Assembly (NCBI GenBank): GCA_947053345.1
Contig: CAMRSM010000009.1
Location: forward strand, 27,732-67,731
From: an uncultured Lachnospiraceae bacterium
GTDB taxonomy: Bacteria; Bacillota; Clostridia; Lachnospirales; Lachnospiraceae
Length of the DNA stretch: 40,000 nt
Reading direction: 5' to 3'
Part shown: piece by piece, positions 10,014-25,605 of the stretch
How the letters are laid out: every line of letters begins with the position of its first letter
How positions within the stretch are numbered: position 1 is the stretch's first letter
The notes under the pieces: model-generated
Told to the model about the DNA's origin: nothing
Database searches by the model: none
The model's input: only the letters and a program-made list of their open reading frames with translations
Made by a program: the position numbers and the translations under genes

Positions 10014-11070
10014 TGACTGTCCCCCTTATCGCGATCTCATCCTCCCCAAGAATCACATTCTGCGGTTTTCCGTTCAGTCTCGTTTCTGTAATATCCAGAA
10101 TCCCCTTTACTTCCAATATCCTGCTTTCCAGTCTGGACACCCGGACAATAAGACGTTCACTGTCCGCCCACGCCCGGCTTAACTCACAGAAGTAAGCATC
10201 CACTGCTTCCTCCACACCCTCTTTCACACTGTCAAAGCCATATCCATCCTGATAAGCAAACTGAAATTCCAAATCAATATTTTTCCCGCCCACTGGCACA
10301 ACCGTCACATGGTGTCCGATTGGCGCAATGCCATATCCATTTCCACTGCACGCCGGCGGGTCAATTTCCTCCTGTACAAATTTCACCAGTTCTTCGGAAG
10401 GTATCCTGTATTCCGAACTGATTACTACCAGTTTTACACTTCCTCCGCCGTTCCATGCCGGGTACACCTTTACGCCGCCCACCCCCTGGATTGCCACGGT
10501 TTTTTCCCTGTAATCAGCAACATTTCCGCCATAAGCCTGTGAATCAAGACCCTGGAAATATCTTTTTCTAAAATGTTCCGTTTCCTCCTCATCCTCCCCC
10601 GGAATGAGCAGTTCCGCCAGCTCACAGCCTTCCAAACCCGCAATGTAGTCAATCGGAATCAACGTCCCAAATACGGTATTGCCCGCGCTACCCACCGTTT
10701 CACATTCTAGCTTGTATTCACCATCCCAAATCTTTTCAACCACAGAATAAGCATGCTCTCCGCAACGAAACCTAGCTCCCATCGGTATTTCAACTGTAGC
10801 AGGCACAAATTCCCCCTTCAGGACAGCGTATGTAGCAGGCAGGGGAACAATCCCGCGCTCCGCCGCCCTGCGGATGAGGTATTCCCTTGATGCCGTGTCC
10901 GCGAACAGTTCCCGCAAGATACCCTCTAAACCGAGGTACATCAGCTGCAACTCCATCGCTGCCGGTGCAAGTGCATCGTAGATCACGGATCCCTCCCGCT
11001 TATCAAATTTGTCCGGGATACGTGCAAGCATACGTTCCAGCAGCCCCTGATAAGACATTTCCTCAAACAT
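9997..11070 (-). CDS. Baseplate J-like protein (XkdT-like)
   Basis: Size, position and N-terminal LLERMLARIPDKFDKREGSVIYDALAPAA pattern. Confidence 0.85.
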   Translation of the reverse strand: MFEEMSYQGLLERMLARIPDKFDKREGSVIYDALAPAAMELQLMYLGLEGILRELFADTASREYLIRRAAERGIVPLPATYAVLKGEFVPATVEIPMGARFRCGEHAYSVVEKIWDGEYKLECETVGSAGNTVFGTLIPIDYIAGLEGCELAELLIPGEDEEETEHFRKRYFQGLDSQAYGGNVADYREKTVAIQGVGGVKVYPAWNGGGSVKLVVISSEYRIPSEELVKFVQEEIDPPACSGNGYGIAPIGHHVTVVPVGGKNIDLEFQFAYQDGYGFDSVKEGVEEAVDAYFCELSRAWADSERLIVRVSRLESRILEVKGILDITETRLNGKPQNVILGEDEIAIRGTVSEAGG

Positions 11071-11474
11071 CAGACATTCACCTCCCTTCCTGCCTGCACA
11101 TCCCCAAAAACTGTATGTACCGTAAAACCCACATGTATGACACCCTTCTGCGGGATATCAAACTCAAAATCCACAACCTCCAATACACGGTCATCCCAAA
11201 GCAGCGCCTCCCGGATCCTCCGTTCCAGCTCCGGGAAGACGTAGGAGGTCGGCTGCCCGTACAGGTCTTCCGTCTCGATCCCGTAATCCCCACTGTACAT
11301 GGCATACCGGAAGCGTTCTGTCAGGAGGGTCTTGCTGATCGCCTGCGCCATCGCCACAATCCCGTCCGTGCATCCGCGCATCCTCCCGGCGGACATATCC
11401 ATCCGGTAAGTATGGGTTGGCTGTTCTTCCTTTCCAAAATCCTGCGATAGGAAAGCTGCGCTCCCTGGTATCAT
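11070..11474 (-). CDS. DUF2634/XkdS-like baseplate wedge protein
   Basis: Position upstream of baseplate J and about 134 aa. Family assignment is from memory. Confidence 0.65.
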   Translation of the reverse strand: MIPGSAAFLSQDFGKEEQPTHTYRMDMSAGRMRGCTDGIVAMAQAISKTLLTERFRYAMYSGDYGIETEDLYGQPTSYVFPELERRIREALLWDDRVLEVVDFEFDIPQKGVIHVGFTVHTVFGDVQAGREVNV

Positions 11475-11803
11475 CCGGTTTTATCCCATACAATATATTT
11501 TTGCCCGCCCTGCTGCCGCAGGAGGATCACCTGGTCATCCACCGCCAACCCATTATGGATGGTTACCAGCTTCCTTTCGGAATCATCCCTGCTACCGAGC
11601 ATCACCTCATGATCCGTCACATGGCGTGGGAGCACAAGCTGGGCTTCCCCAAGCCGCATTTTCTGTTCGACAATTATCTCGAGGGGACTTGTTCCCGCGA
11701 CCCTGCCAAAGCAGACTTCGACTGGCTTTGACGCACCCACCGCCGCCAGCGCCACCCTCTTTATCATATTGACAAAGCCAACCGAATCAGCCAATAAAAT
11801 CAC
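11471..11803 (-). CDS. DUF2577/XkdR-like baseplate spike-associated protein (start uncertain)
   Basis: Synteny with the Xkd module. Alternative starts at 11794 (TTG) or 11767 (ATG). Confidence 0.6.
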   Translation of the reverse strand: MILLADSVGFVNMIKRVALAAVGASKPVEVCFGRVAGTSPLEIIVEQKMRLGEAQLVLPRHVTDHEVMLGSRDDSERKLVTIHNGLAVDDQVILLRQQGGQKYIVWDKTG

Positions 11804-12767
11804 CCCCTCTGAGTGTCAGATCCATAAAATGCCCGTCCAACCGGAATTTGTGCGTCACTTTCTCAACCAGCATAAAATTCTTCACCTCCATATCCCAAAG
11901 CACAAGCCTTACCAGTACCAGGCTTCCCGCCCTGACCCTGATATCCCCTGCCGCATTCGTAATCTTCAGGTTCTGTGTCCTGCTGTTATACAACCTTAAC
12001 AGGGCATCCGCCTTTGCCTTCCCGTCTTCCCCCTCCGAAAGCGTATCATAATACTGCAGCACGCCCCAGCGGTTCATATTGCTGGAATCCTGTGCCACAT
12101 AGACTTCCCTCTTCCCACTTTCCTCATTGTCATACGTCAATTTGATCTTATTGTAAGTGCTGTTATCAATGCTGGAAACATACTCAAAATTCTCCCCCGT
12201 TTCCTCATCAACCATCAGAAACGCCCCGGATGCGCCGACCCGCATGGAAGAGATATTCTTCAATGTCAGCTTACCGGAATCATCAAACAGCACAAACATT
12301 TCCTTCCTGTTCTGCAAAGTCAGGTCAAGGGCATTGCCTATCATATCAAATAAGGAAGTGTTGTCCTCAACCCTTGAGGCAATCACAAAACCGGTATCCT
12401 CAATCGTTCCGGTGTTCAGCCTGAAATCCGCAGCGATCATCCGGATCAACTGGGAAGCCGTCTTGTTTTCATAAACATATGTATCCTTGTTATTCAAGTA
12501 ACGCAGCTGGTCATAGGCCGTCACTGAGACAACCCGGTTCTTGTCATGCTTTCTCGAAAATACAAACCCGAAGAAAACATCCTTCCCATCCAACCTCATC
12601 CGCACCGCCGCGCCTTCCCCAAAACAGAGTACATCATCCCCCAGAACCTTAAAACTCAATTTCCCTGGCACACCCTTCCGCTCCGTGCTCCACTCAATGC
12701 CCTCCTCCACAAGGGGAAGGTAGCTTTTTGTACCGACAGAATCCGAAAGAAAAAGTTCAATGCCCAA
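11787..12767 (-). CDS. XkdQ/YqbQ-like baseplate hub (gpD-like) protein
   Basis: 326 aa. Synteny between the XkdP-like and XkdR-like genes. Confidence 0.7.
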   Translation of the reverse strand: MGIELFLSDSVGTKSYLPLVEEGIEWSTERKGVPGKLSFKVLGDDVLCFGEGAAVRMRLDGKDVFFGFVFSRKHDKNRVVSVTAYDQLRYLNNKDTYVYENKTASQLIRMIAADFRLNTGTIEDTGFVIASRVEDNTSLFDMIGNALDLTLQNRKEMFVLFDDSGKLTLKNISSMRVGASGAFLMVDEETGENFEYVSSIDNSTYNKIKLTYDNEESGKREVYVAQDSSNMNRWGVLQYYDTLSEGEDGKAKADALLRLYNSRTQNLKITNAAGDIRVRAGSLVLVRLVLWDMEVKNFMLVEKVTHKFRLDGHFMDLTLRGGDFIG

Positions 12768-12770
12768 ATG

Positions 12771-13478
12771 TCACACCCCCTGTACACTCCCTGCTGTAAC
12801 CCAGCCAAGCCAGCCGCCAGAAAGTGAAGTTACATGGTACGGATGTGAACCTTTCTGGTTGACAAAATTTATTTTTCCCCTGTAATTTGAAAGTGTCTTC
12901 CCGGCACCACCCCCGTAACTGTCACGGTGCAGCCGTCCGTTCACAACAACCTCCGACCCTATCCCAACCGGCACGGAAGCCCGGACAGTTGATTTTGCCC
13001 TCCTGGCCTGTATGCTCATCCCACCTCCCCCAACCTTCACCGTCTTCGTACCATATTCCCTGAACTGCTTCAGCTTGATCTTTACCGTCACGTCAAACCC
13101 GTTTTTTGCCTGCTCCGTAACCACATAATCTTCCATGGACACTTTCATATCTGTGGAAAAAAGTACCTTCCCATCCGGCAGCGTCCGTGAAACAATGAAC
13201 TGGAATGGCTTCTTCTGTGCCTTCAGCTGTTCAAAAACAACTAAAAAATGATAGGCCCCCTGGAAACCGTCACGGTTAACCGCAAACGGGTACTCCACTT
13301 GCGGGATGCAGCATTCAAACTCAATATCCGTCAGTGCCGGTGTCTTCAATATATTGATTTCCCCCTCATTGAGCAGGGTAAGTGTAGAATTTGCATTGTT
13401 GACCTTCACCTGCAGCTTCTGGGGCGCGACTGGCAATAAGCACTTATCCAAATAGAAATCATACCCATCCCTGCCCAT
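12771..13478 (-). CDS. XkdP-position tail protein
   Basis: Immediately downstream of the tape measure gene. 235 aa. Confidence 0.55.
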   Translation of the reverse strand: MGRDGYDFYLDKCLLPVAPQKLQVKVNNANSTLTLLNEGEINILKTPALTDIEFECCIPQVEYPFAVNRDGFQGAYHFLVVFEQLKAQKKPFQFIVSRTLPDGKVLFSTDMKVSMEDYVVTEQAKNGFDVTVKIKLKQFREYGTKTVKVGGGGMSIQARRAKSTVRASVPVGIGSEVVVNGRLHRDSYGGGAGKTLSNYRGKINFVNQKGSHPYHVTSLSGGWLGWVTAGSVQGV

Positions 13479-16102
13479 TATTCAGCCCCCTCCGCAATCA
13501 TGTTTGCCGCCTCATTCGCAGAATCAACCAGCCCGTCAATGATGCCATCCAGATCCATTGCACCCGTAACGGTATTGTAATTTGTCTGCTCAACTGTAAT
13601 CTCGCCGGTCGTGTACCGGTTGACCACCTCCTGCTCCGCAATGTCACGCAAATATTTCAATTCTTCCCCCGTGACAGCCACGGAATCCTTGATCGTCCCG
13701 GTATCTGCCGCAATGTTGTCCAGATCCCATGCCATGCCCGAACCATAATCCCCAAGGTTCTCGTAGTCTTCTGGGTCTGGGATACCATCATCCCAAGAAT
13801 GGTCTGAAAAGAAGTTTTCCACTTTTTCCGTGATACCATCTCCCCAAGATGCCCCCGCCCGGTACGCATCCATGACCCAACCTTCCTGAAAAGTATCATA
13901 CGTTGATATCCCATCATGGAATGCCTCTGAAATGCTAGCATATTCACTTTTATTATTCGCAGCAGCAGCGGCTTTTGCTGCATAGTCATCTGCCGCATTA
14001 CTTATGCCAGAATAATCAAAGCTCACAAACGGTAACCTATTAAGGGACGCACATATCTTCTCAACTACCTCAAGCGCAGTTGAGAGAAGATCATACCACC
14101 ATGAACAGACACTGGAAATTGCATTATGAAATGCCGTCATGAGGTTCTGCCCACATGCACCAATGGCAGCGCCGATTCCAAGAGCGATATTAGCCACCGT
14201 CAAACCCAAATTTTTGATAAACTGAATACCCACATTGACACCACCACAGACCACTCCAAACGCACTCTGCGCAATATGCCCTGTACCCGAAAAATAATTT
14301 GCCAGAACAGCAATCACCGCAATCAGCGCAATAATCGCCAGAATAATCCATGTGATAGGGCATGCCAGTAATGCCGCATTCAACCCATATTGTGCAGCGG
14401 TAGCTGTAAAAGCTGCCCCGGATTCCATGGCGAGCGAAGCTGCGTGAACCTTTTCAGCAAAAGCTTTTGCTGCCGTGATGCCCGTTGAAATCCCAGTAAC
14501 GGTATTATACAAAAGCATAGCGCCGTAATAAACTGTCAGGGCAGCTGCCACACCATAGATAATCGGTGCCAGCCATGACCAGTTATCAGAAACCAACCCT
14601 GCAACTCCAACCAACAAATCAAAAATCTCAAGTACTGCCCCTGCAACTGCCGAAAGAGCCTCCGCCGCATTGCCCACAAACTCTTGAAATGCCACACTGT
14701 TCGCAAGCTCATTCAGCTGCTGCAGGACAGGCCGGAAAGCGATTTGTGCAGTATTTTGAAAGGATGTCCAGACCTGCCCAAAGGTCACCGGCATACTCTC
14801 AAAAGCCGCATTGGTCTCGTCCATTGCCGCAAAAATAGCAGCTTTTACAATGTCAGCAGTAATTTGCCCTTCCGCTGCCATATCCTTTAATTGTCCCTTG
14901 GGAACTTCCATGTAGTCAGCAATCGTCTGTATGATGTTCGGTGCCTGCTCCAATATACTATTGTATTCCTCCCCGCGAAGCACACCGGAACCCATTGCCT
15001 GCGTGAGCTGCAGCATGGCGGCATCAATACCGCCTGCTTCCGTGCCCGCGATCTTAAACTGCTTGTTTATCTGTTCCATGAAGGCTATGATCTCTTCTGA
15101 ACTGCCAAATGCATCCCCCGCCATCAGGCCAAGCTTGGAAACCGCGTCGGCGGTCGCCTGGTAAGATCCCCGCGACCGCTGCGCCGAAAGATAGATCATA
15201 TCCTGTAACTCCTGCGTGGTCTGTAGCCCGTCATTCATCAGGTTCAGGCGGGCAGCCGTTTCCGTCATTTGATCCGATAAACCAAGCGCAGCCGAAAAGG
15301 TATGAACCGTTGCATAAGCCGCGACCGCCCCCTTTATCATATCCGTCAGCCGGCTCGCCTCCTCCGTGCCTTGGCTGACCTCCCGGTTAAAGCGTCCCTG
15401 CCCATCCACATTATCACGGATATACCGTTCCGTATTCCCCACCGTCTTGGAAAGCCGCAGGTAAGCCTCGTTTGCCGCCTGCACATCCATACCCTCCACC
15501 GCACGGTTTAGGTTTTCCTGTTCGCGCACGGCCTGGTCAAGCTGTGCCCTTAGCTGCTCCAGTTCCCCATTCACGGCATCCACGCCCATATTGAAAGGAT
15601 TGCCCTCGATCTCCTTGATCCGGTTGCGCACCATATCCATCCGGACGGCCAGGCTGTTCAGGTTGCGGGCTGCTTCCGGAGGGAACAGGTCCGTATTATA
15701 CGCCTGCTTTGCGATGGCATCCTGTGTCGCGCACAGCTGTTCCAACATACTGTTTACACCCTGTACCTCCTGTCCAAACCGCTCGACCCCGGACGAGGTA
15801 AACACCCCCATGCTGTCCGCCTGCCACATAACCGGGGCAGGGCTGTTTTCAGGGTGGCGCACCGTCGCAGGGACATCAAGCCCTTGCATGGCCTCATCAA
15901 GCTCACGGACGGCGATCGTCGCCTGGTTGATGGAATCCCTTGCCGCTTCCATGGAAACCATATCAACGGATGCACCCATCGTCTGGTTCAGATCCCCCAT
16001 TGCCGCCAGGCTAAGGTTGACCGAATCAATGACCCGGTATAAAACTCCTGTAAAATTGTCCCGTAACTCAATCGCCGTCCGGATGGAAGCCATCTGGATC
16101 AC
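13478..16102 (-). CDS. Tail tape measure protein
   Basis: 874 aa, helical N-terminal half and a central multi-TM/Gly-Ala-rich region. Follows the chaperone pair. ATG at 16093 with GGAAAGGAAGG RBS is the likelier start than GTG 16102. Confidence 0.9.
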   Translation of the reverse strand: MIQMASIRTAIELRDNFTGVLYRVIDSVNLSLAAMGDLNQTMGASVDMVSMEAARDSINQATIAVRELDEAMQGLDVPATVRHPENSPAPVMWQADSMGVFTSSGVERFGQEVQGVNSMLEQLCATQDAIAKQAYNTDLFPPEAARNLNSLAVRMDMVRNRIKEIEGNPFNMGVDAVNGELEQLRAQLDQAVREQENLNRAVEGMDVQAANEAYLRLSKTVGNTERYIRDNVDGQGRFNREVSQGTEEASRLTDMIKGAVAAYATVHTFSAALGLSDQMTETAARLNLMNDGLQTTQELQDMIYLSAQRSRGSYQATADAVSKLGLMAGDAFGSSEEIIAFMEQINKQFKIAGTEAGGIDAAMLQLTQAMGSGVLRGEEYNSILEQAPNIIQTIADYMEVPKGQLKDMAAEGQITADIVKAAIFAAMDETNAAFESMPVTFGQVWTSFQNTAQIAFRPVLQQLNELANSVAFQEFVGNAAEALSAVAGAVLEIFDLLVGVAGLVSDNWSWLAPIIYGVAAALTVYYGAMLLYNTVTGISTGITAAKAFAEKVHAASLAMESGAAFTATAAQYGLNAALLACPITWIILAIIALIAVIAVLANYFSGTGHIAQSAFGVVCGGVNVGIQFIKNLGLTVANIALGIGAAIGACGQNLMTAFHNAISSVCSWWYDLLSTALEVVEKICASLNRLPFVSFDYSGISNAADDYAAKAAAAANNKSEYASISEAFHDGISTYDTFQEGWVMDAYRAGASWGDGITEKVENFFSDHSWDDGIPDPEDYENLGDYGSGMAWDLDNIAADTGTIKDSVAVTGEELKYLRDIAEQEVVNRYTTGEITVEQTNYNTVTGAMDLDGIIDGLVDSANEAANMIAEGAE

Positions 16103-16299
16103 CTTCCTTTCCTGCCAGCCTTCCGCTTCACCTCTTTTTCCTTTTCACGGTCATTCTTAATCTTGACTTTGACCGCTGCCACGACAAAGGCTTTTTCCTG
16201 CTCATCCATCCCTAAAAAGACGGACGGCAGGATATGGAGCTTCAGGAGGGCATAGTAAGCAAAATTTGCTTCCCAATCCCCTCCCTCGATCAGTTTTTT
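16099..16299 (-). CDS. -1 frameshift extension of the tail assembly chaperone (G/GT-like long product)
   Basis: Re-reading from AAAAAAC (16293-16299) in the -1 frame gives an open 64-codon extension (KLIEGGDWEANFAYYALLKLHILPSVFLGMDEQEKAFVVAAVKVKIKNDREKEKEVKRKAGRKGR). It stops at 16099-16101, abutting the tape measure start. Confidence 0.65.
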   Translation of the reverse strand, partial: KKLIEGGDWEANFAYYALLKLHILPSVFLGMDEQEKAFVVAAVKVKIKNDREKEKEVKRKAGRKGR

Positions 16300-16721
16300 G
16301 CCTCGTCGACCTTATCCTCAAAGGACGTATTGAATCCCTGGAAATTCTGCACATAGGCGGCGAGGTCATTGTATTCACCCGGGTCGTCCACCATCGCAAG
16401 GAGCAGTTCCTCCGGTGTCTTCACGCCATAAGAATCCTGTAGCTGCGCATCGTACAGATCCGGCACGGCGATAGAAGCCACCAACATTTTTTGGATATAA
16501 AGGCTTGATTTCAGCTTTGACCGGTACATGTTCGGCTTCCCCGGTACCGGGAGGTCAACCGTACACGCTTCCCGGATTTCCTCGTTTTCCTTTGATGTAA
16601 TGTGGCGGAATTCCCATTCCAACGGGGTTCCCTTCTCATCGCAGATCGACTTTGTTACGGCGTGGAGCTCATTTGCCCGGACTGCCTTATTTCCCTTCAT
16701 GAACCTTGCAAATTTCGACAT
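16290..16721 (-). CDS. Tail assembly chaperone (XkdN-like), zero-frame product
   Basis: Position between the tube and tape measure genes. 143 aa. Ends just after an A AAA AAC slippery heptamer. Confidence 0.8.
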   Translation of the reverse strand: MSKFARFMKGNKAVRANELHAVTKSICDEKGTPLEWEFRHITSKENEEIREACTVDLPVPGKPNMYRSKLKSSLYIQKMLVASIAVPDLYDAQLQDSYGVKTPEELLLAMVDDPGEYNDLAAYVQNFQGFNTSFEDKVDEAKN

Positions 16722-16744
16722 TATTAAATCCCCCTTTTCATTTT

Positions 16745-17224
16745 CTAATTTGAAGCAAAACCATCCATTTCCGTAAACTTCTCCGGCAGATCCCAGCTCT
16801 CGAACGTCCCGGAGATTTCCTCATCCAGCAGTTCCTCCCCCGCTTTGAATTTTGCCAGGATAAAACTCTCACACAGGCAATCACGCAGGATGACCGTCTG
16901 CCGCCCCACGGTGCTGCTCGGATCCTCGTTGCTGACTTGGATCTCAAAATACGGCATCACGCCCGTCTTCTGGTAATTGTCCGCAAGCTCGCGGAAACAG
17001 GATTGATTATAGTGCATCGTCCCGCTCCACGTCCCCTTTCCGCCCGCGATCTTATGCCCCATCCCCACCTTCCCGAGGATCGGCACGTCAACGATATTCA
17101 CTTCCCACTTGCTCTCAAAATCCGTCATGCTCATAAAATTGAGCCGCCGCCCGTTGATTGTGACATAGCATTCCGCAAGGCCACCATAAACGGCATCCTT
17201 CGAATTCATCATGGTATCCGACAT
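16745..17224 (-). CDS. Tail tube protein (XkdM-like)
   Basis: 159 aa directly after the sheath gene. Confidence 0.85.
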   Translation of the reverse strand: MSDTMMNSKDAVYGGLAECYVTINGRRLNFMSMTDFESKWEVNIVDVPILGKVGMGHKIAGGKGTWSGTMHYNQSCFRELADNYQKTGVMPYFEIQVSNEDPSSTVGRQTVILRDCLCESFILAKFKAGEELLDEEISGTFESWDLPEKFTEMDGFASN

Positions 17225-17244
17225 ATTTTCCCAGCCCCCCTTTC

Positions 17245-18552
17245 CTATGCCACCGTGACCGTCATGTACAGTTTGCCCATCGCATTGACCACGGTCACAT
17301 AATCCTTTACCACAACAGACTTCTTTGTCTCCCCAGGTTCCACGGAAACATCGGCATCCGAGAAACCTTCAATCGCCCGGATGCCCTCCATCTTCCGGTG
17401 GTGCGCCACGATATCCGACCAAAGGGAAACCCTGCCCGCCGCATCGTTCGGGACAACACCCAGATATTTCGTATTGAACATTACCGCAATATCGTTTCCG
17501 ATCTGGTCGATCACCCGGATCGTCTGATTGTCCTTGAACACCTCCCCCTGCGTGTCCGTGACCGTCACCATCGTATTGATGTCCGCCAGCACACGGATCT
17601 CCTTCCCAACCTTGTGGAGCGTGAATTCCCCCTGACGGATCGTTTCCTTGAGCTCGCCCTGCGTATAATCAGCAGCCACGGCAAATTCCCCGTCATAACG
17701 CCGGTTCTGGGTGCTTTTGTTCACCTCACAGCCCGCCAGGATACCTGTCACCCAATAGACAAGGGCTGCCTCACCCCACCCTTCATCCAGTACCCTGTTC
17801 TTGACACTGACCGTACCGCAGTAATCCGCCGCTTTGTTGTAAAGCACCAGCTGGAACTTAACCCCCATCTCCTCGCGCAGCCTACGCACAAAAGCCGAAT
17901 ACAACCCCTTCGTGGTCTCATCCGTCACCGCCACGCCCATCGTGTTATAGGAAAAGGATTCGATCTTATCCAGATACGTCTGGTGTGCCGTACCATCCAC
18001 CGTGCCGTTTGTCCCCCCGGATAATGGAACCGCCGCTGTTACCATAAGTTCCGCCCCAGACTTAAATCGGACAAAACGGTTTGGCACAAGCCCGTCCGCC
18101 CCGGAAACGACCTGCTCGTCCACCGTTACTGTGCCAAGCACCGTCTTTACGACAAACAGCTCCTCATCGTCCGCATCCTTCTGCACAATGATCTTCAGGT
18201 CATTGCCACGGATGCCCCCACAGACCGCCTCCGCCAGGTCATTGCCCGCCTTCGCACCCCCGGAAGTCAGTTTGTACACATAGAGCGTGCGGATGTTCCG
18301 GAACAGATCCCGAAGCCCTTTTAGCTTATCGTGGGTATAATCATAACCGAAGATCCCCATGCTATTTTTCTGGAAATCCTCGCTGGTAACCTCGAACACC
18401 TCACCATCTATGCCCCAGTCCAGCTCCAGTGGCATCGTCGCAATGCCCCGGTCAGAAAGCGCCGCGTTTGCGGATGTTGCTGATACAAAGTTGATATACG
18501 TGCCCGGAAGTTCCTTATTTTGGACTGTAAAAGTCCCTCCGCCAAAAGCCAT
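17245..18552 (-). CDS. Contractile tail sheath protein (XkdK-like)
   Basis: N-terminus MAFGGGTFTVQNKELPGTYINFVS is a typical sheath signature. 435 aa. Confidence 0.9.
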   Translation of the reverse strand: MAFGGGTFTVQNKELPGTYINFVSATSANAALSDRGIATMPLELDWGIDGEVFEVTSEDFQKNSMGIFGYDYTHDKLKGLRDLFRNIRTLYVYKLTSGGAKAGNDLAEAVCGGIRGNDLKIIVQKDADDEELFVVKTVLGTVTVDEQVVSGADGLVPNRFVRFKSGAELMVTAAVPLSGGTNGTVDGTAHQTYLDKIESFSYNTMGVAVTDETTKGLYSAFVRRLREEMGVKFQLVLYNKAADYCGTVSVKNRVLDEGWGEAALVYWVTGILAGCEVNKSTQNRRYDGEFAVAADYTQGELKETIRQGEFTLHKVGKEIRVLADINTMVTVTDTQGEVFKDNQTIRVIDQIGNDIAVMFNTKYLGVVPNDAAGRVSLWSDIVAHHRKMEGIRAIEGFSDADVSVEPGETKKSVVVKDYVTVVNAMGKLYMTVTVA

Positions 18553-18553
18553 C

Positions 18554-18757
18554 TTATTTCACCTTTCCTTTCATATAATCCCCCACCATTTTTTCCACGT
18601 CCGAAAACGTGTACCGTTCCCCTGGCTTTAAGAGAGCCGTCAGGATATCCCTCCTGTCCCGGTACTTCTCCGAGCGAAGTAACTGCTCTGCGGAAAATAA
18701 CCCACCGGACTGTTTTGCTTTCCCTTTCACCACTTCCATTTCCTTCTGTCCTGCCAT
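18554..18757 (-). CDS. Small hypothetical structural-module protein
   Basis: 67-aa ORF tightly packed between the neck and sheath genes. Confidence 0.45.
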   Translation of the reverse strand: MAGQKEMEVVKGKAKQSGGLFSAEQLLRSEKYRDRRDILTALLKPGERYTFSDVEKMVGDYMKGKVK

Positions 18758-18761
18758 CCCA

Positions 18762-19205
18762 TCACCTTCTTCCCTTTTTCACTGATACATCCTCTGAAAA
18801 CTCCTCCATCGGGTCAAGATCTACCACCTTGCGGACGATCCGGTCATAATCTACAAAAAAATTCAATATCCCGTCCACAGTCTCCGCCCTCATCCCTGTC
18901 CCGCGCACCAAGGAATCCCCAACCTTAATCCATTCCAGGCAGCAAAACAGCCGTCCGGCAACCATGTTACATTCTTCCTCTGCACGCCCCCCATCTTCCG
19001 GGAAATACCGGATACAAAACCCGTTCTCCTGCAGATACCGTTCCCCAAGGAACAGCTTTTGCGCCAGAAAGATGCAGGAAATAAAAAAGCACGGCTTCTC
19101 AAAGCCCTGCTTTACTTCCTCCACATAATTTTTGTAGCGCTCACCGAACTCCCTATTCAGGGCAATGCTAATTGCCGCGATGGTCGAATTTGTCACTTCA
19201 CACAT
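18762..19205 (-). CDS. Neck/tail-terminator-position protein (XkdJ position)
   Basis: Synteny only. Confidence 0.5.
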   Translation of the reverse strand: MCEVTNSTIAAISIALNREFGERYKNYVEEVKQGFEKPCFFISCIFLAQKLFLGERYLQENGFCIRYFPEDGGRAEEECNMVAGRLFCCLEWIKVGDSLVRGTGMRAETVDGILNFFVDYDRIVRKVVDLDPMEEFSEDVSVKKGRR

Positions 19206-19675
19206 CCCTCCAAAAACTTCTTGAGCCTTGCTTCCAACACCTTGGGGGCAACCGCCCGGATCTCCTTCTCTGATATGGTAAGCATAAAATGCCCTTGAAC
19301 CCAGCCCTTATGATTGGCTGTTCTATATCCATATTCCACGTAGCTGGCATATTCCGTATTATTGATAACATCTACTTTATAAATGCCGCCTTCTTTCCTG
19401 ATTTCCCCAATAGTCCAGCCCCTGCGAAGTGTCCCGCCTTTCTTACCCATTTCTTTCTGTCCTTTGTGTTGCTTATTTGATTCACAAGTATAAGAATTTC
19501 CTGAATAATCCCCCACTGGGGTGCGCTTTATCACCTTGGCGAGCAGCCGCGCCGCAAGTTCCTTCGCACATCCGGCAAGGAAATCCTCCTGTGTCTTCTG
19601 CAGTGCGAGGAGCTGCTGTTGGAGCTTTTTCATATCCCCTGATGAAAAACCGCCCATCCCTCCCATCACGCCCAC
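19193..19675 (-). CDS. HK97 gp10-family head-tail joining protein
   Basis: LAARLLAKVIKRTPVGD motif and position. Confidence 0.72.
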   Translation of the reverse strand: MGVMGGMGGFSSGDMKKLQQQLLALQKTQEDFLAGCAKELAARLLAKVIKRTPVGDYSGNSYTCESNKQHKGQKEMGKKGGTLRRGWTIGEIRKEGGIYKVDVINNTEYASYVEYGYRTANHKGWVQGHFMLTISEKEIRAVAPKVLEARLKKFLEGCVK

Positions 19676-20070
19676 CCCCCGAACAATTCCAGCATGACCT
19701 CCTGATGGGAATGGTAAACGGCTGGCTCACCGCTTGCCGCATATTCACCAGTCACCCCGTTCTGTGTGACAATCACCTTGGAGCCAGGATTTACCCTGAC
19801 CTCCGGTGCAATAAACAGTTTAACACCCTGCGATACCTTTGCCGCCACATCCGCCTGCAGGGCAGCGCTTATCTTTTCAAAAGACAGCCTGCATGGCTGA
19901 TCCCGGAGGACAACCACTTCACCCTGCCGGGAGACCTTTGTTTTTTCGTCCACGGTGCTTGCATATTCCACAACGGTACAGGTTCCCTCATAAACACCTT
20001 CAACAGCGCCCCTCGCCGCCCGCCGCGCGGCCTTTACCGCCTTACTTACCATCGGATTTTGCGATAACAT
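19666..20070 (-). CDS. Head closure / head-tail adaptor protein
   Basis: 134 aa, by synteny. Confidence 0.6.
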   Translation of the reverse strand: MLSQNPMVSKAVKAARRAARGAVEGVYEGTCTVVEYASTVDEKTKVSRQGEVVVLRDQPCRLSFEKISAALQADVAAKVSQGVKLFIAPEVRVNPGSKVIVTQNGVTGEYAASGEPAVYHSHQEVMLELFGGWA

Positions 20071-20441
20071 GAGAATTCATCCTTTCCATAGGCAAGAAGA
20101 TGATTGATAAAAGAGGTCAGTCTCTGTTCTGGTGTCAGGCTCCCTTCGCCGGTCGCAAACACGGTGTTGGTATCACCCGTCTGAATCTGCTTTACCGCAT
20201 AGTCCAAATCGAAACCATCCAATCCCGCTGGTGCAAAGGTTTTCTTCGACAGGAGAAACTCCCCTGCTGCCATATCCACTGCCACATGTTCCAACCTCTC
20301 TGGTACATTTTTACCACCAATCTCATTCTTAATGGTGTTTTGCACTTTCTCAACACAAAAAGCCAGTGCAGACGCATCCCCTGCCCCGGCCTCATAGCCA
20401 AACGATTTTAACCGTTCCTTTACGGTTTGTGTATCAAGCAT
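20046..20441 (-). CDS. gp6-like head-tail connector (DNA packaging) protein
   Basis: Internal start MLDTQTVKERL behind AAGGAGGGGG. Lies directly after the capsid gene. Confidence 0.62.
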   Translation of the reverse strand: MLDTQTVKERLKSFGYEAGAGDASALAFCVEKVQNTIKNEIGGKNVPERLEHVAVDMAAGEFLLSKKTFAPAGLDGFDLDYAVKQIQTGDTNTVFATGEGSLTPEQRLTSFINHLLAYGKDEFSCYRKIRW

Positions 20442-20454
20442 GGCATCCCCCTCC

Positions 20455-21558
20455 TTACCCGCGGGAGATAATGCGGGCAATCGGGATTGCCTTGTGGTCA
20501 ATCGTCTTGCTGTCGCCGTTGCTGACCAAAGACCAGTTCTTGCCGTTTTTCAGTTCCGCATCCGTAGGGCTGTTGGTTTTCTGTACCGCTTTCAGGTAAG
20601 AAATCCCCGCCACGCTGACCGCATTGCGCCTGCGGGAAATCAGGGTATCCTCCCCGCCCCTGGTCTTTGCATCGCGCACCATCTCATACGGCACTTTCGC
20701 CCCGACCGGTTCAAAGCCAACCGCACCTTCCCCAAGGACATAGCTCGTATACTGTGTATAAGCATCCTGCGCCGGAACCCCATCGGAAGCCGGGACTGCA
20801 GGGATTACTTCGATCGGCATGGAATCATCAACGATGACCAGCCGCCCGTTCCATGTCCCCATGCCAAGGTCGCGCTCGATCCCCTCCGCATCCGTATATT
20901 TTAAATATGCTAAGAGTTTCAGGTTTTCAAGGTTTGTGGCAACCGTGGAATGGCAGATCACCAAACTGAACTTCTGCTTGTTGTCACCGCAGGCCTTCTG
21001 GATTGCCACATTCAAAGAAGTAGCCCCCATGCGCTGTCCCTCCTGCGTGGTTTCCCCCGAAATATCATAAGTATGCTTATCCACAAATTCGGCATTTGCT
21101 GTCCTGACCTTCCCCGTCCCGGTTTCCGACATGGCAAAAATACCTTCAAAGACCGCAAGCAGAGTACCCTGATCCACATCATTCCAATAGCGGTTGATCT
21201 GGTTCCTGACATTCGCCATAAAGTCAACGCCTCCGGTTACATCATAAGAAAAATCCGCTTCTGTCCAACCCATCATACGCCCATAGGTGAAAACACCCTG
21301 CTCGAAGGTATCCGTCTTTTCGGCAGTCAGGTTCGTTTCGCCGTCATAGTTCAGTGCGCTTCCCCCGATCAGGCCAAAGTAGGGAAGGACAGCATAGACA
21401 GTCCCAGTCTGCGAATTGGTGACGAAGGTTTCCCGCAGGCGCTTGTCGGAAACAATCGCCTTTGATTCCTTCAGCTTGTTCAGCTTCACATTCGGGACAG
21501 CAGACATATACTTCCCAAATGCCTTTTCATTAAAATTCTTTGCATCAAACTTAGCCAT
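20455..21558 (-). CDS. Major capsid protein
   Basis: 367 aa following the scaffold gene. Confidence 0.85.
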   Translation of the reverse strand: MAKFDAKNFNEKAFGKYMSAVPNVKLNKLKESKAIVSDKRLRETFVTNSQTGTVYAVLPYFGLIGGSALNYDGETNLTAEKTDTFEQGVFTYGRMMGWTEADFSYDVTGGVDFMANVRNQINRYWNDVDQGTLLAVFEGIFAMSETGTGKVRTANAEFVDKHTYDISGETTQEGQRMGATSLNVAIQKACGDNKQKFSLVICHSTVATNLENLKLLAYLKYTDAEGIERDLGMGTWNGRLVIVDDSMPIEVIPAVPASDGVPAQDAYTQYTSYVLGEGAVGFEPVGAKVPYEMVRDAKTRGGEDTLISRRRNAVSVAGISYLKAVQKTNSPTDAELKNGKNWSLVSNGDSKTIDHKAIPIARIISRG

Positions 21559-21584
21559 TTTCCATCATCCTTTCCTGAATCTCA

Positions 21585-22178
21585 TTATTCTGCGTCCGGG
21601 TTGTTTTCGATATAAGCTGCCAGTTCCTCGTAAGACATCTTCGACATGTCAACATTCGCCCCTGGCTTGTTGTCCCCGGAGGCTCCCGGCTGGAAACCCC
21701 GGAAATTGTTCTGCTGCTTTGCATTGAACAGATAAGCGTCCGTTTTCTGGATCGCCTTGATCTGCTCATCCCATCCAGCCAGCTTCCCGTCCTCGCCCAG
21801 CTTCACCTTTGAAATATCAATCAGGGCTTTCACCGCCTTGCCGTTCTTTGCCCCTGCAGCGGTCAGGGCAGCATCAATCGCATTGTCAAGGCGGAGTTGC
21901 GCCAGTTCTGCCTTGTACGCCTTCTCCTGGTCGGCATTCTGCTGCTTCATGGCTTCGATCTGTTTTTTCAGTTCTTCGTTGTCGCCCGCTGAACCTTTCA
22001 GGGTTTCAAGCTGCTTGTCACGGTCAGAAACCGATGTTTTCAGCGTCTTGTTCTCCTCGACCACCTCATTGTGTTTTGACTTCTCCACATAACCTCCCAG
22101 CTCTTTCAGGGAAGCTGCTTCTGCTTTGGCTGCCAGTTCTTCACTGATGCCAAGGGCAATAAACTCCTCCTTCTTCAT
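21585..22178 (-). CDS. Scaffolding protein
   Basis: Highly charged, helical, Ala/Lys/Glu-rich 197 aa upstream of the capsid gene. Confidence 0.82.
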   Translation of the reverse strand: MKKEEFIALGISEELAAKAEAASLKELGGYVEKSKHNEVVEENKTLKTSVSDRDKQLETLKGSAGDNEELKKQIEAMKQQNADQEKAYKAELAQLRLDNAIDAALTAAGAKNGKAVKALIDISKVKLGEDGKLAGWDEQIKAIQKTDAYLFNAKQQNNFRGFQPGASGDNKPGANVDMSKMSYEELAAYIENNPDAE

Positions 22179-22213
22179 TTCTTGCCTTCCTTTCTGAATT
22201 TTTTGTATAAAAA

Positions 22214-22238
22214 GAACGCCCTCACGGAGAGGACGTTC
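22214..22238 (-). terminator. Intrinsic terminator just upstream of the scaffold gene
   Basis: Minus strand GAACGTCCT-(7-nt loop)-AGGGCGTTC followed by TTTTTAT. Confidence 0.6.
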
Positions 22239-22382
22239 TGATTATTTTTTGATATGCCGAATTTGGAATCAAAATTTCCCAATTCACAAATCCTGCACTG
22301 TTACAAACTCCCATTCTCTAAAAATTCTTTTGTTCAAATGCCCCATTGTCTAAAGCCGGCTGAATCACAGTGTTTATTTCCC

Positions 22383-22411
22383 TTGCATTTTACCTAAAAG
22401 TATGGTATAAA
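22383..22411 (+). promoter_or_regulatory. Strong sigmaA-type promoter pointing against the late operon
   Basis: TTGCAT (22383-22388), 17-nt spacer containing TGn, TATAAA (22406-22411). Confidence 0.5.
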
Positions 22412-22418
22412 ATAATTA

Positions 22419-22496
22419 GGAAAAGACCATTTCCCGTCCCCATTGTCCCAATTCCATGAATCGGTTGACCGGACAGATAAATGGTCTTTTTTATTT
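22419..22496 (+). ncRNA. Candidate ~75-nt structured small RNA convergent on the MuF-toxin stop codon
   Basis: Predicted start about 7 nt after the -10. A 12-bp closing stem AAAAGACCATTT (22421-22432) / AAATGGTCTTTT (22479-22490) is followed by TTATTT. No ORF with an RBS lies inside. Confidence 0.35.
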
Positions 22497-24089
22497 CCTG
22501 CTATATGCTTTTAAAAGGTTTTTATTCTTTATTACAATGATTTTTTCTACAAATTTTGTATGTTCTGAAGCATAAAGTCCTTTTATCTGCCTTTCAATAT
22601 CTTCTTCGGACAACGGACAGTCTGTAATATCAAAAATAAAGTTGGGAGATTGTTTCTTTTTCTTTGCAAGCATACCATAAAATAAATTTTTTCCTCTCCC
22701 CGTCGGAGATTTCAGATCAAACCTTTCCCCATCAATCAAATAATCGGGTGTCTGTATTCCTTGCGGAAACAACACTTGGGGCACAAACTCCACCGTTTTT
22801 CCATATTCTCCGCTTAGTATAGCGGCGACTTCCTTTTCTTGTTTTGTTGGTTGGAGTATGACATGTTTCCCGTCCACTTTATATGTTGTACCGTTTATTG
22901 CATATTCCTGCCTTTCAATAACAGTACCTTTTATTCCCTTTGTCCCTGTCCATTCCTTAGTAATATCCATGGGACTAATTTTATCAGAATCTTCTTTTCC
23001 TGTCCAGTGCACATTTTCGTCTCGATTTACTTCATCAAACTTTGTTTTTTCCCCACCATCTACAAAACTTTTCTTCCATTCCCCATAGCTCATATCGTCC
23101 GGAACATGGTACGTCTTCCCATCCTCGTCCCTTGCCGCCCGCTTTCCTGCCTGCCCAAAGTCATCCTCAAAATACGGAACGGTCGTGCTCCGGCAGAAGA
23201 CATGGAACGGCGGCGCGGTCACACCGGCCTGGTAATCCTTCATCGGGAATACCTGCCCATCAAGGCTGCGGCAAATTTCGGAGGTGTGGGAATCCAGCGT
23301 CGCCACGATCTCATACTGGTCAACCCCCAATTCGCAAAAACAGTCCTTCTGCGCCGCCGAGCTGAAATAAGCTTCCTCCGTCATGACAAGCCGTCCAGCA
23401 TTGTAACTGGAATTTTTCATCTTGCGCGCAATGGCATCAATGGCTTTCTGCGGATCTTGCCCCAGCATGATATTATGCGTCAGTTCGTTATGTACCTCCC
23501 CGATCAGCTTCTGGCGATTGCCCCAGACCCTTTCGGAAAAATTCTTCCCGTCCACAGCCCACGGTTTGCTGATAACCTTTTCAACCGCAGACTGGTCAAT
23601 CCCTGCAATATCCCAGCCTACCCCAAAGCCCTTCTGCAGCTCATAAGCCGTATGGTAGTAGCTATCCAGATAAACACGTTTCATAGCCGCATCCACATTG
23701 TCCAGCTGGTTTTTAAACATTACCTCGAGGCTCTGCTGTACTTGTAGCTTTAAAGCCTCAAGACGTGAGATGTGGAAGCGTGCCGAGGCGTTTTCCAGTT
23801 CCTTCATCCATTTCCCATCCAACTTATTTTCTTTCCCGTGACGGATATATTCCCCGACATCCCAGCGGAACTCCGTTAATTCATTTCCGGAAAGCATCCG
23901 CCGGGCTTGTGCCATCGACACCCCATTGTTGGCAGCAAACCGCTGGTACCACATACTGATCTTGCCTTCCAGTTCCCTCTCCGCCTGCCGGTATTGCCGC
24001 TCGACTTCTGCACACACAGCCGCCCCTTCCCGGTTCTGTGCCTCCTCAAGCTGTGAAAAGCGCAACTTCCAGTAGTCACTGTTTTTCAT
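22491..24089 (-). CDS. MuF / SPP1 gp7-family head morphogenesis protein with toxin-like C-terminal domain
   Basis: MuF core TLDSHTSEICRSLDGQVF...PPFHVFCRST. An extra ~180-aa AT-rich-encoded C-terminus carries TPDYLIDGERFDLKS. Confidence 0.88.
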   Translation of the reverse strand: MKNSDYWKLRFSQLEEAQNREGAAVCAEVERQYRQAERELEGKISMWYQRFAANNGVSMAQARRMLSGNELTEFRWDVGEYIRHGKENKLDGKWMKELENASARFHISRLEALKLQVQQSLEVMFKNQLDNVDAAMKRVYLDSYYHTAYELQKGFGVGWDIAGIDQSAVEKVISKPWAVDGKNFSERVWGNRQKLIGEVHNELTHNIMLGQDPQKAIDAIARKMKNSSYNAGRLVMTEEAYFSSAAQKDCFCELGVDQYEIVATLDSHTSEICRSLDGQVFPMKDYQAGVTAPPFHVFCRSTTVPYFEDDFGQAGKRAARDEDGKTYHVPDDMSYGEWKKSFVDGGEKTKFDEVNRDENVHWTGKEDSDKISPMDITKEWTGTKGIKGTVIERQEYAINGTTYKVDGKHVILQPTKQEKEVAAILSGEYGKTVEFVPQVLFPQGIQTPDYLIDGERFDLKSPTGRGKNLFYGMLAKKKKQSPNFIFDITDCPLSEEDIERQIKGLYASEHTKFVEKIIVIKNKNLLKAYSRK

Positions 24090-25605
24090 TCACACCACCA
24101 TCCCCATCCTGTGCAGGATTCCCCTGCTGCCTGAAAGGGTTATATACCTGCTGCCGCTCAAACTCCGCTTGTTCTTCCTCTTTCTGCTTTTTCAGCCTTT
24201 CCATTTCCTTCTTTGGATCGTCAACCCATGGGTGCTGCCCTACAATGGTTTCATCCGAAAGAATCCCTGTCGAAGCCACGCAGTCTGCGATTACTTGGCT
24301 CTCATCCATCAGCATGTCACGGTTGAAGATGACCGTGGCTTCCTGACCGGAAAAATCCCCCTGCCCGGTATTTGCAAGATAGGCATTCACAAACCAGAAG
24401 ATTTCCCGAAATGCTGCCTGCAGCTCCGTCTCCATATCGTTCGCATCAAGGTCAATGTCCGAATACATGGACTGGATATTCATCTGGTTCGGGTTGCCGG
24501 AAAGCCGGTCGTCCTTCGCATCGTAGCCCATGCCATTTTCAATCAGGGCTTTCTTGAAGATATCAAGTATAATCCGGTAATTCTCCGGGTTCACCTGAAC
24601 CTCCAACGTTTCCACCCCTCCCTTTGTCTCACCGTCATAACGCACCTTCACCGCGCCATAGGTCGCAAGGTTGCGCCGGAATTCCCCCAAGTTCGTACCA
24701 TCATAATTTTTCAGCACAAGGATTGTGTTCCTAGAATCCTCCTGCATGTTATTCTCAAAATCCGACAGCATGGCGTTGATCCCGTCCTGGAGCGTTTTCA
24801 CCCTGTTGAGCAGTGGGAGCTCCTGCTCATTGTATTTTATGGGGATCAGTGGTATCCTCTGCCAGTTCAATCCCATCACCGCGCCATCCGCGCCGGAAAC
24901 CACTGCATGGGGCACCGAGACTGCCTCCCCCTCCAAGCCCACATCCGGGAAGAGCAAGCCGCCATCAAGGACAAAACGGTGGACACCCCTCAGGTCATAT
25001 ACCTCCACTTTCTCAACAAGCCGCAAAACCGTCCCCTCATAGCACTCCGCCAGATACAGGCGCACCGCAAAATCAAGAACCGTGTGTTCCCTGTCCTTCC
25101 AGAACGGCAATACCTCATAACCCGGAAACAGGCGGAAGGAAAATCCCCCCTCCCCGTCATGGAATGGATACAGCCATGCAATCCCGTTGTTCATTGCCAT
25201 CTTGCCCGCATTCTTCAGTGTCTTCATGAACCGTTTGTCAAAGACCTGCCTCAGATACCCGGCATACCCTTCATGATCCGTTTCCACAACAAAGGGCTGC
25301 CCCAGAAGGTAATTTGCTTTCTGGTTGACCAGCTTTCCATACTGGTTGTCAATGACGCGGTTGTTCGGAAGATTCCCAACCTCCGTCAGCTTCCCATCCT
25401 CCCCGATTACCGTCCTTTTGCGGTGCAGGATGTCATGTTCCCCTTCATAGTACAGGCTTCCCTTAACCTGCATGGCGCGCTGTGGGCTGTTCTTCCATCT
25501 GGCTATCTCCCTCTCAAGAAATTCCCGGTCGGACATCCGGCTTCTTGCACCCTGCAGAATCAGACCGGAAACCCCATTCTTTAGAAAATCAATAAAATCC
25601 AACAT
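24076..25605 (-). CDS. Portal protein (SPP1 gp6-like)
   Basis: 509 aa between terL and MuF. Confidence 0.88.
   Translation of the reverse strand: MLDFIDFLKNGVSGLILQGARSRMSDREFLEREIARWKNSPQRAMQVKGSLYYEGEHDILHRKRTVIGEDGKLTEVGNLPNNRVIDNQYGKLVNQKANYLLGQPFVVETDHEGYAGYLRQVFDKRFMKTLKNAGKMAMNNGIAWLYPFHDGEGGFSFRLFPGYEVLPFWKDREHTVLDFAVRLYLAECYEGTVLRLVEKVEVYDLRGVHRFVLDGGLLFPDVGLEGEAVSVPHAVVSGADGAVMGLNWQRIPLIPIKYNEQELPLLNRVKTLQDGINAMLSDFENNMQEDSRNTILVLKNYDGTNLGEFRRNLATYGAVKVRYDGETKGGVETLEVQVNPENYRIILDIFKKALIENGMGYDAKDDRLSGNPNQMNIQSMYSDIDLDANDMETELQAAFREIFWFVNAYLANTGQGDFSGQEATVIFNRDMLMDESQVIADCVASTGILSDETIVGQHPWVDDPKKEMERLKKQKEEEQAEFERQQVYNPFRQQGNPAQDGDGGVNEKQ

Follow-up and report, generated by a model that had tools for sequence, protein, structure and literature searches.

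A structured antisense RNA gene, probably an antidote, occupies the immunity-gene position beside a family of MuF-borne nuclease toxins in gut bacteria and pathogenic streptococci

Polymorphic toxins are thought to be neutralised by cognate immunity proteins, and the locus described here raises the question of what takes that part when no such protein is encoded. The locus lies in a 40,000-nucleotide stretch of contig CAMRSM010000009.1 from an uncultured Lachnospiraceae bacterium (the window), where a minus-strand late phage operon encodes a MuF protein that ends in a nuclease toxin domain. An immunity gene of the kind carried by MuF modules is absent from the window, which has no open reading frame (ORF) in 22179-22490, the spacer behind the toxin gene, and no conserved neighbouring protein. 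Instead, a small-RNA gene on the plus strand and the convergent minus-strand toxin domain form a two-gene module. As set out below, this conserved, structured and promoter-driven antisense RNA gene is coupled to the toxin family, a homolog of it is transcribed in a lysogen, and the RNA is probably the antidote for this toxin family in gut bacteria and pathogenic streptococci.

As shown in Table 1, positions 22375-22498 of the plus strand are a compact small-RNA gene, consisting of a sigma-70-type promoter, a ~78-nt hairpin of three helices and a U-tract. The original prediction had placed here a strong promoter (TTGCAT-17-TGG TATAAA), a 12-bp stem, a T-run and a stem that abuts the toxin stop codon, without any ORF preceded by a ribosome-binding site (RBS); a check of the sequence confirmed every one of these coordinates, and no credible ORF was found in any frame of 22179-22490. 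Between its predicted ends, the plus-strand RNA folds at -23.5 kcal/mol (z -2.9) and carries three C-runs in its loops, and two pairs of P2 are C.A on the plus strand and G.U on the minus strand. The T-run past the P1 stem is TCTTTTTTATTT (22486-22497), and the TAA stop codon of the MuF-toxin gene (22493..22491) directly adjoins the 3' arm of the stem. Because the 3' terminal structure, or terminator, of the toxin mRNA is thus the same hairpin on the other strand, both RNAs are fully complementary over ~70 nt. Searches of both strands of 21500-23500 against Rfam at permissive thresholds gave chance-level matches only (E ~1 or more, far under the gathering scores).

We then compared the window with the loci of toxin-domain homologs (referred to by L numbers), 36 of them from species-representative genomes (mostly Lachnospiraceae, one Selenomonadaceae), 10 from viral contigs and 27 from metagenome contigs; one contig, L055, is 100% identical over the toxin domain and 99.3% identical over 6 kb of the window. 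The aligned block measures ~120 nt and runs from the stop codon to just past ATGCAAG, the reverse complement of the -35 element, with no similarity beyond. A covariance model of the element, R1, placed it straight after the toxin-domain gene in ~75 loci (~50 distinct sequences) of Lachnospiraceae and other Clostridia, including loci of toxin homologs at 36-47% identity, and had only one match, and thus no second copy, in the window. The most distant homologs (38-40% identity) gave weak R1 scores, yet they have a hairpin and a consensus antisense promoter at the same position.

The fold common to the family comprises P1 of 12 bp, a bulge, P2 of 7 bp, an internal loop and the P3 hairpin of 5-7 bp. 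Among 32 sequences, 87% of the cells expected to pair did so, compared with at most 58% when the 3' partners were slid by 1-3 columns; double-sided changes were seen in 21 of the 26 base pairs, and covariation as high as that observed occurred in none of 500 shuffles. For example, A-U is replaced by G-C at two positions of P1 in 13 of the 32 sequences, and the P2 pair 34-72 is found as AU, UA, CG and GC, while in the close family the internal loop, which reads GGTCAAC and GGACAATGG on the strand of the toxin, hardly varies. As judged from these alignments, the structure of the element is under selection. The promoter is likewise retained: ~47 of 51 distinct loci have the hexamers at a fixed distance of 17 nt, and the sequence between them varies. 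TTGCAT, TTGTAT, TTGCAC, TTGATT or TTGAAA stands at the same position as the -35 element, the TATA core of the -10 element is invariant in alignment A3 (TATAAT in Streptococcus phages), and distant homologs use other but equally good hexamers, such as TTGATT-17-TATAAT. Because promoter and hairpin are conserved, with covariation, in dozens of independent loci, they are far beyond chance.

Since a hairpin can be read from either strand, we asked which strand carries the RNA. Three measures favour the antisense RNA. Cells that depart from Watson-Crick pairing form G.U 100 times when read as antisense RNA, compared with 38 times when read as toxin mRNA; of 50 distinct cores, 36 have their better fold in the antisense direction; and the tail after the stem is richer in T in the antisense direction in 44 of 51 distinct loci, compared with one in the direction of the toxin gene. 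The hairpin itself probably serves both transcripts as a bidirectional terminator.

To assess how closely the element is tied to the toxin, we used as specificity controls Javan570, Javan199, Javan380 and phiFL1A, which have related MuF N termini with another C-terminal domain or none. All four controls have a small ORF overlapping or abutting the MuF stop codon, the usual layout of toxin and immunity gene, and none of them has an antisense promoter (best scores 7-8/12) or a hairpin past that stop. Conversely, an all-versus-all clustering of the ORFs within ~2 kb of the element in 50 loci recovered the toxin and its own shadow ORFs and no conserved protein neighbour; the 77-aa ORFs annotated behind the toxin gene in certain relatives coincide in part with the RNA element and show no conservation of their own as coding sequences. 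Among viral contigs, a scan with a degenerate pattern returned 47 stretches, of which eight were real elements and seven of these eight lay with the toxin. The element also persists beside the toxin domain in decayed chromosomal remnants that lack the scaffold and other late genes. In L074 the catalytic DLK segment is deleted and the element has decayed too, and in L042 and L076 the 3' half of the toxin gene was lost along with the element.

The association extends to streptococci. A blastn search of the 1-kb region against cultured phages gave no match, and the streptococcal relatives surfaced by protein search only. In a tblastn search of the toxin domain against cultured and deposited phages, 41 of the 42 records were Streptococcus phages or prophages, including those of S. 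pyogenes MGAS5005, MGAS315, NZ131, SSI-1 and Manfredo, S. equi (P9), S. agalactiae, S. suis (SMP), S. pneumoniae (IPP24) and S. oralis; the 42nd comes from a phage of the rodent gut, in which the gene bears the annotation 'CDI toxin, Bp1026b-like' (CDI, contact-dependent growth inhibition). In each of the 10 phage loci inspected, nine of them from Streptococcus, an unannotated gap of ~90-120 nt follows the MuF-toxin stop codon, and a scan for promoters and folds found in every gap a hairpin with a U-tract adjoining the stop and an antisense promoter scoring 9-11/12.

One of these RNAs is already on record. Differential RNA sequencing of S. pyogenes M1 strain S119 mapped a transcription start site (TSS), pyotss0677, that gives the 70-nt primary transcript SP119_SR103 (1445566-1445636), described as 'as 3'UTR SP119_1434' and also as antisense to the 5' untranslated region (UTR) of the next gene, with no function proposed (Rosinski-Chupin et al. 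2019, PMC6431027). The cultures that yielded this transcript expressed the late operon at <3 reads per kilobase per million (PMC6431027). The promoter string of pyotss0677 is the exact reverse complement of the L127/L129 sequence, and SP119_SR103 is antisense to the 3' end of the gp7/MuF gene. It thus shares with the window an antisense promoter (TTGATA-17-TATAAT), a short RNA (70 nt) and a terminator that extends into the end of the gp7/MuF-toxin gene, and it is a positional homolog whose RNA is too diverged for a strong R1 score (23.8 bits in P9, 15.0 in L128). It differs in its hairpin sequence, and it was catalogued as one of many prophage antisense RNAs, without link to a toxin or to a family. 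Overall, the conserved promoter, the covariation, the near-obligate co-occurrence, the absence from MuF genes with other C-terminal domains and this primary transcript bear out the original idea of a toxin-linked antisense small RNA in the position of an immunity gene.

The limits of the conserved unit were defined by blastn of the window against all loci. In unrelated contexts the homology spans 22373/22383 to 22986/23009, that is, from promoter to promoter, which delimits a ~637-bp cassette in which the toxin promoter and its ORF are followed by the shared structured terminator and by the RNA gene with its own promoter. Hence the RNA promoter, at first taken for an orphan, is one of two convergent promoters that bound the toxin cassette. 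The other lies inside the fusion gene (TGGACA 23006..23001, TG 22986..85, TAAAAT 22983..78, ATG 22970). In 28 of 33 loci of the Lachnospiraceae type, an extended -10 element (TGnTAnAAT) stands 7 nt (in one locus 6) before the conserved methionine of the toxin domain, with a -35 element usually 17 nt, and in a few loci 16 nt, upstream. No room is left for a Shine-Dalgarno sequence between this promoter and the ATG, which predicts a leaderless mRNA and a free 159-aa nuclease. Full MuF fusions, in which the internal promoter is written in linker codons, make up ~40% of loci; the remainder are short remnants, and truncated chromosomal remnants with in-frame stops upstream have kept the promoter and often improved it to TATAAT.

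The rest of the spacer does not belong to this unit. The exact repeats noted originally are present (CCCCATTGTC at both 22341-22350 and 22438-22447, TCCCAATTC at both 22277-22285 and 22446-22454), and of the proposed degenerate ~21-nt units spaced 31-34 bp apart, two of ~21-24 nt are 75% alike, but they are not conserved in relatives. Exact repeats of at least 9 nt are no more numerous in 22150-22550 than in a Markov control (P = 0.19); the recurrence in the spacer of two 9-mers of the RNA core has P ~0.001, which is unusual post hoc only. A survey of 39 loci found six further occurrences of the loop motif downstream of the element against three expected, one of the six being the tandem copy in L015. 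Positions 22312-22372 match only L055, whose contig is near-identical to the window, and 22183-22311 are common to L055 and one relative, L057. Checking the whole spacer across relatives gave a divided result, with conservation and covariation for the RNA element (~75 loci) and 22179-22372 outside the conserved unit. A protein-binding array fails as a conserved feature, recurrence downstream is not a property of the family, and the repeats are probably incidental, at most the debris of an older copy. The second terminator that had been suggested in the spacer is real (22239..22213), but it is oriented for the minus-strand late operon and is not part of the cassette.

Table 1. Features of the toxin-RNA cassette and its surroundings in the window
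Feature	Position	Strand	Remarks
-35 hexamer TTGCAT, small-RNA promoter	22383..22388	+	then 17-nt spacer
Extended -10, TGG + TATAAA, small-RNA promoter	22403..22411	+	from the sequence
Predicted small RNA, ~78-80 nt	22418..22498	+	predicted TSS 7 nt past the -10, 3' end in the U-tract
P1, 5' arm	22421..22432	+	pairs with 22479-22490; perfect 12-bp inverted repeat with 46-nt interior
P2, 5' arm	22433..22439	+	pairs with 22471-22477; A22478 bulged
C-rich internal loop CCAUUGUC, 5' side	22440..22447	+	toxin-strand columns GGACAATGG nearly invariant
P3 apical hairpin	22448..22464	+	22448-54 with 22458-64; 94.6% of cells paired; 6 of 7 pairs changed on both sides
Internal loop GUUGAC, 3' side	22465..22470	+	toxin-strand TCAAC invariant or nearly so
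3' arms of P2 and P1	22471..22490	+	inverted repeat, covariation
Terminator U-tract of small RNA	22486..22498	+	overlaps toxin stop codon 22493..22491
Internal toxin promoter TGGACA-17-TGnTAAAAT	22978..23006	-	ends 7 nt before ATG 22970; 10/12 plus TG
CdiA-CT (Bp1026b-like) nuclease toxin domain	22491..22970	-	159 aa, conserved internal Met to stop
MuF-toxin fusion ORF	22491..24089	-	532 aa; late operon
Portal gene	25605..24076	-	late operon, before the MuF gene
Scaffold gene	22178..21585	-	late operon, after a 312-bp gap; capsid gene next
Intrinsic terminator, late operon	22213..22239	-	11 pairs and T-run; phage backbone, outside the cassette
Degenerate motif repeats in spacer	22270..22354		not conserved

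What would such an RNA do? By analogy with known convergent systems, we propose, with a probability of roughly 0.55, that it is a cis-antisense, type I-like antitoxin that silences the toxin by pairing with the 3' end of the toxin mRNA. According to this model, the constitutive-looking sigma-A promoter would fire toward the toxin gene and make a ~78-nt, almost all-hairpin RNA. In the lysogen the late operon would be off and some toxin mRNA would still be produced, from the internal leaderless promoter in Lachnospiraceae-type cassettes and by leaky read-through elsewhere. The abundant antisense RNA would pair with the 3' end of this mRNA, starting from the exposed complementary loops, and the duplex would be cleaved by an RNase III-type enzyme, stripping the mRNA of its protective 3' hairpin, so that the presumably toxic tRNase-like domain would not be made. 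Convergent transcription would perhaps add interference. The RNA would in this way neutralise the toxin, a task that falls to a protein immunity gene in other MuF toxins.

Several observations weigh against this model. The window's own copy folds better on the toxin strand (-32.6 kcal/mol, z -5.3, compared with -23.5 kcal/mol, z -2.9, on the antisense strand), and the hairpin structure may perhaps matter on both strands. Conservation of the loops is not needed for a cis-antisense RNA, because its complementarity is automatic, and the conserved internal loops hint at a protein or a target in trans. Immunity in polymorphic toxin systems classically guards a cell against toxin protein that arrives from outside, and an antisense RNA cannot do so. 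In P9, the one Streptococcus phage inspected for it, no internal leaderless promoter is evident and the domain has no methionine at its start, so that this part of the design may be clade-specific. Complete RNA genes also occur without a toxin gene, as a tandem second copy in L015 (5601-5730, the same as L058 3601-3730), which is a full element of another sequence class (108 bits) following the cognate one; as copy 1 in L029 (3851-3979), 1.5 kb upstream of that locus's own cassette; and in L101 (8273-8403), where an element 86% identical to that of the window stands without the toxin domain. These are hard to explain if the cis-encoded toxin mRNA is the only target, and the arrangement in L015 resembles, by analogy, that of an orphan immunity gene. 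Conversely, L067 has an intact toxin domain (736-1287) without the element; its 1.4-kb contig is short and of low coverage, so it could be a chimera.

The conserved loops and the orphan genes lead to a different possibility, which we regard as doubtful: immunity at the level of the protein, as in type III systems, with an RNA that would bind and inhibit the nuclease domain, for instance as a substrate mimic, and with the antisense layout secondary. Such an RNA would guard lysogens against toxin made inside the cell or delivered by related phages, as classical immunity, which has to act on the protein, would require. It would account for internal-loop nucleotides that are nearly invariant while the stems covary, and the complete orphan RNA genes of L015, L029 (copy 1) and L101 resemble the orphan immunity genes of polymorphic toxin loci. 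The toxin family acts, moreover, on structured RNA, Bp1026b CdiA-CT being a tRNase (PMC5576092). Nevertheless, the element has no ToxI-like tandem repeats or processing sites, the toxin fold is unrelated to that of ToxN, and convergent full overlap with a shared terminator is a hallmark of antisense control. In a bolder form, which is tentative too, the RNA may be a true immunity factor that neutralises the tRNase domain, possibly as a tRNA-like decoy, and protects lysogens and cells with orphan RNA genes from capsid-delivered toxin. Antisense silencing of the mRNA and inhibition of the protein might possibly be combined.

The remaining explanations detach the element from toxicity or from RNA altogether. 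We consider it rather unlikely that it is a phage regulatory RNA or bidirectional terminator that insulates the late operon, or a C-rich small RNA acting in trans on Shine-Dalgarno regions, and that it travels with the cassette. Its loops do carry three C-runs, G-rich complements are found again in the window ahead of the scaffold gene, on the strand of the late operon, the S. pyogenes study records its homolog as antisense to the following gene's 5' UTR as well (PMC6431027), and L101 retains the element without the toxin; set against this, it stays with the toxin domain in decayed remnants devoid of late genes, it is absent from related phages with another MuF C-terminal domain, and the downstream recurrence of its loop motif (six against three expected) is no family feature. 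Coding potential offers a very improbable account, that of a decayed protein immunity gene or hidden small protein, represented by the 77-aa ORFs of relatives or by a 39-aa plus-strand ORF at 22456-22575. An antisense-frame ORF cluster is found in 29 loci, and tblastn of the 77-aa ORFs of L001 and L006 matches window positions 22497..22372 weakly (E 8e-4 and 0.014), yet these matches reflect the conserved nucleotides of the RNA element, translated in a single frame: small ORFs inside the RNA have no conserved start codons on either strand, reading frames are not conserved, whole sequence classes lack the ATG, which elsewhere falls within the variable P3 loop, in-frame stops occur in the window, and substitutions are compensatory in helices rather than synonymous in codons. 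The hydrophobic 39-aa ORF itself is judged spurious, as it has no RBS, an unconserved start in the P3 loop and a course that crosses the terminator of the RNA. Least probable of all is an element acting as DNA, either a protein-binding repeat array or an attC-like recombination hairpin marking a mobile cassette. Sharp cassette boundaries in many contexts and spacer repeats 31-34 bp apart would suit it, whereas the repeats are not conserved, the G.U/A.C asymmetry of the hairpin is what selection on RNA typically leaves, the unit has a promoter and a U-tract, a homolog is transcribed, and ORF clustering revealed no recombinase that travels with the cassette.

The surroundings of individual copies were recorded as well. 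The extra copy of L029 lies beside HicB-like and UPF0175 genes, and downstream of it a small ORF with an HNHP motif is found on the strand of the RNA. The element of L101 follows a 726-aa MuF protein with another C terminus (HNHP...S..D motif) and a 153-aa highly charged ORF. In L067 a gene of the ToxN family (type III toxin, PF13958, E 5e-39) overlaps the 3' end of the toxin gene, with no visible ToxI repeats. A stand-alone cassette in L004 (4001-4640), from a metagenome-assembled genome of Eubacteriales, is flanked by the genes of a DEAD-box helicase and of a LexA-like repressor; with JetD/JetC (Wadjet) genes adjacent and an integrase nearby, the setting looks like a defence island. In phage P9 (L127 3081-3196; also L129), a strong RBS and a 38-aa very hydrophobic peptide, MFIWQMVLVALGVLVLILIVGIAAIAVKSIIAELKKEG, stand right past the RNA promoter, the -35 element of which overlaps the RBS of the peptide; other streptococcal phages have unrelated small ORFs there.

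The toxin partner was identified from the protein encoded in the window. Pfam assigns Phage_Mu_F (PF04233) to residues 198-303 and CdiA_C (PF18451, E 6e-22) to residues 447-523 of the MuF protein, and a PDB sequence search with it led to 4g6v, the CdiA-CT/CdiI complex of Burkholderia pseudomallei 1026b. The AlphaFold model of the last 159 residues has a confidence score (pLDDT, predicted local distance difference test) of 93, and its sole significant fold match by Foldseek against the PDB is 4g6v_A (E 3e-6, probability 1.0). All 29 homologs compared have the same PD...DxK residues, among them D76, D85 and K87 in domain numbering. By sequence, fold and PD-(D/E)xK catalytic residues, the protein thus belongs to the CdiA-CT Bp1026b type (PF18451/cd13442), and with an N-terminal MuF domain and a variable C-terminal toxin domain common to other polymorphic toxins it has the build of a MuF polymorphic toxin. 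Sequence and model identify its toxin domain as a homolog of the Burkholderia CdiA-CT Bp1026b tRNase, and on the same grounds, the CdiA_C match, the 4g6v fold and the invariant PD...DxK, the domain looks active. Jamet et al. 2017 (PMC5576092) included the cd13442 tRNase domain among MuF toxins, and their passage on Bp1026b CdiA-CT gives it as a tRNase (PMC5576092, citing Nikolakakis 2012 and Morse 2012).

Across 22400-23000 of the window the GC content is 0.29-0.43, compared with ~0.5 in the flanking late genes; the dip falls on the toxin-RNA cassette, as would fit its horizontal acquisition. The minus-strand terminator at 22213-22239 is situated, along the direction of late transcription, just 5' of the scaffold RBS and is kept in L057, L012 and L015/L058; its position ahead of the scaffold gene implies read-through or antitermination for expression of the capsid gene.

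Taken together, a whole clade of MuF toxins appears to have a small RNA gene in place of an immunity protein, and this clade spans prophages of S. pyogenes M1/M3, S. equi, S. agalactiae, S. suis and S. pneumoniae as well as many gut Lachnospiraceae. An RNA in the immunity position explains both the missing immunity annotation for this class of toxins and the spurious 'small ORFs' called there. SP119_SR103 of S. pyogenes, detected already and so far unexplained, gains a testable function, and the streptococcal homologs open the question to tests in genetically tractable hosts. The portable cassette of ~640 bp outlasts the decay of its prophages, which is how a module for addiction or defence would be expected to behave. 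Should the RNA bind the protein, it would be the first RNA immunity to a polymorphic toxin; should it do both, the module would represent a class of toxin-antitoxin systems in which one cis-antisense RNA hits mRNA and protein alike. Literature searches gave no report of an RNA partner for toxins of the MuF/cd13442 type, and what appears to be new, as far as the sequences tell, is type I-like antisense control of a virion-borne polymorphic-toxin nuclease in place of a protein immunity gene.

How, then, does the module compare with systems already described? Convergent type I systems of Firmicutes mobile elements are known from txpA/RatA, bsrG/SR4 and yonT/SR6 of B. subtilis prophages and from par RNA I/RNA II of pAD1, and SymE and RalR are known exceptions to the rule that type I toxins are small and hydrophobic. 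With regard to the defining features of type I, the RNA is, in silico, complementary to the toxin mRNA (antisense promoter, ~70 nt overlap), whereas the toxin is not a hydrophobic peptide of usually <60 aa: here it is a 159-aa soluble nuclease domain or a 532-aa fusion, so type I-like control would extend to a nuclease toxin that doubles as a virion protein. These convergent systems share with the cassette their convergent promoters, a short cis-antisense RNA that covers the toxin mRNA at its 3' end, a terminator hairpin used in both directions, a prophage location and an antitoxin RNA made in the lysogen. They differ in that the toxin here is a soluble PD-(D/E)xK-type domain, also fused to a virion protein, and in that the RNA is nearly all terminator hairpin, with conserved loops and orphan copies. 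SR6, of yonT/SR6, is described in PMC5848175.

SymE/SymR and RalR/RalA (PMC4041452, PMC1891008) likewise set an RNA antitoxin against a nuclease-type toxin, and RalR/RalA is prophage-borne; unlike the RNA described here, SymR overlaps the 5' end of symE and RalA is encoded in trans with 16 nt of complementarity, and both systems come from Proteobacteria and involve unrelated protein families. The type III systems ToxIN, AbiQ and CptIN, likewise found on mobile elements or in defence settings, also set a structured non-coding RNA against an RNA-acting protein toxin. Their RNA, however, is an upstream, same-strand array of tandem repeats, ToxI being processed by the toxin, while here a single copy lies downstream on the opposite strand, and the toxin is Pfam CdiA_C, with a fold that matches 4g6v only, instead of a member of the ToxN/AbiQ/CptN family. 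Finally, the MuF toxins with immunity proteins (PMC5576092) and CdiA-CT/CdiI (4g6v) have in common with the window the toxin domain of CDI systems (cd13442/PF18451), and the former also the N-terminal MuF domain, the place of the gene between portal and scaffold and leftover orphan partner genes. Both differ from it in the partner, because here there is no immunity ORF and the conserved companion of the toxin is an antisense RNA gene.

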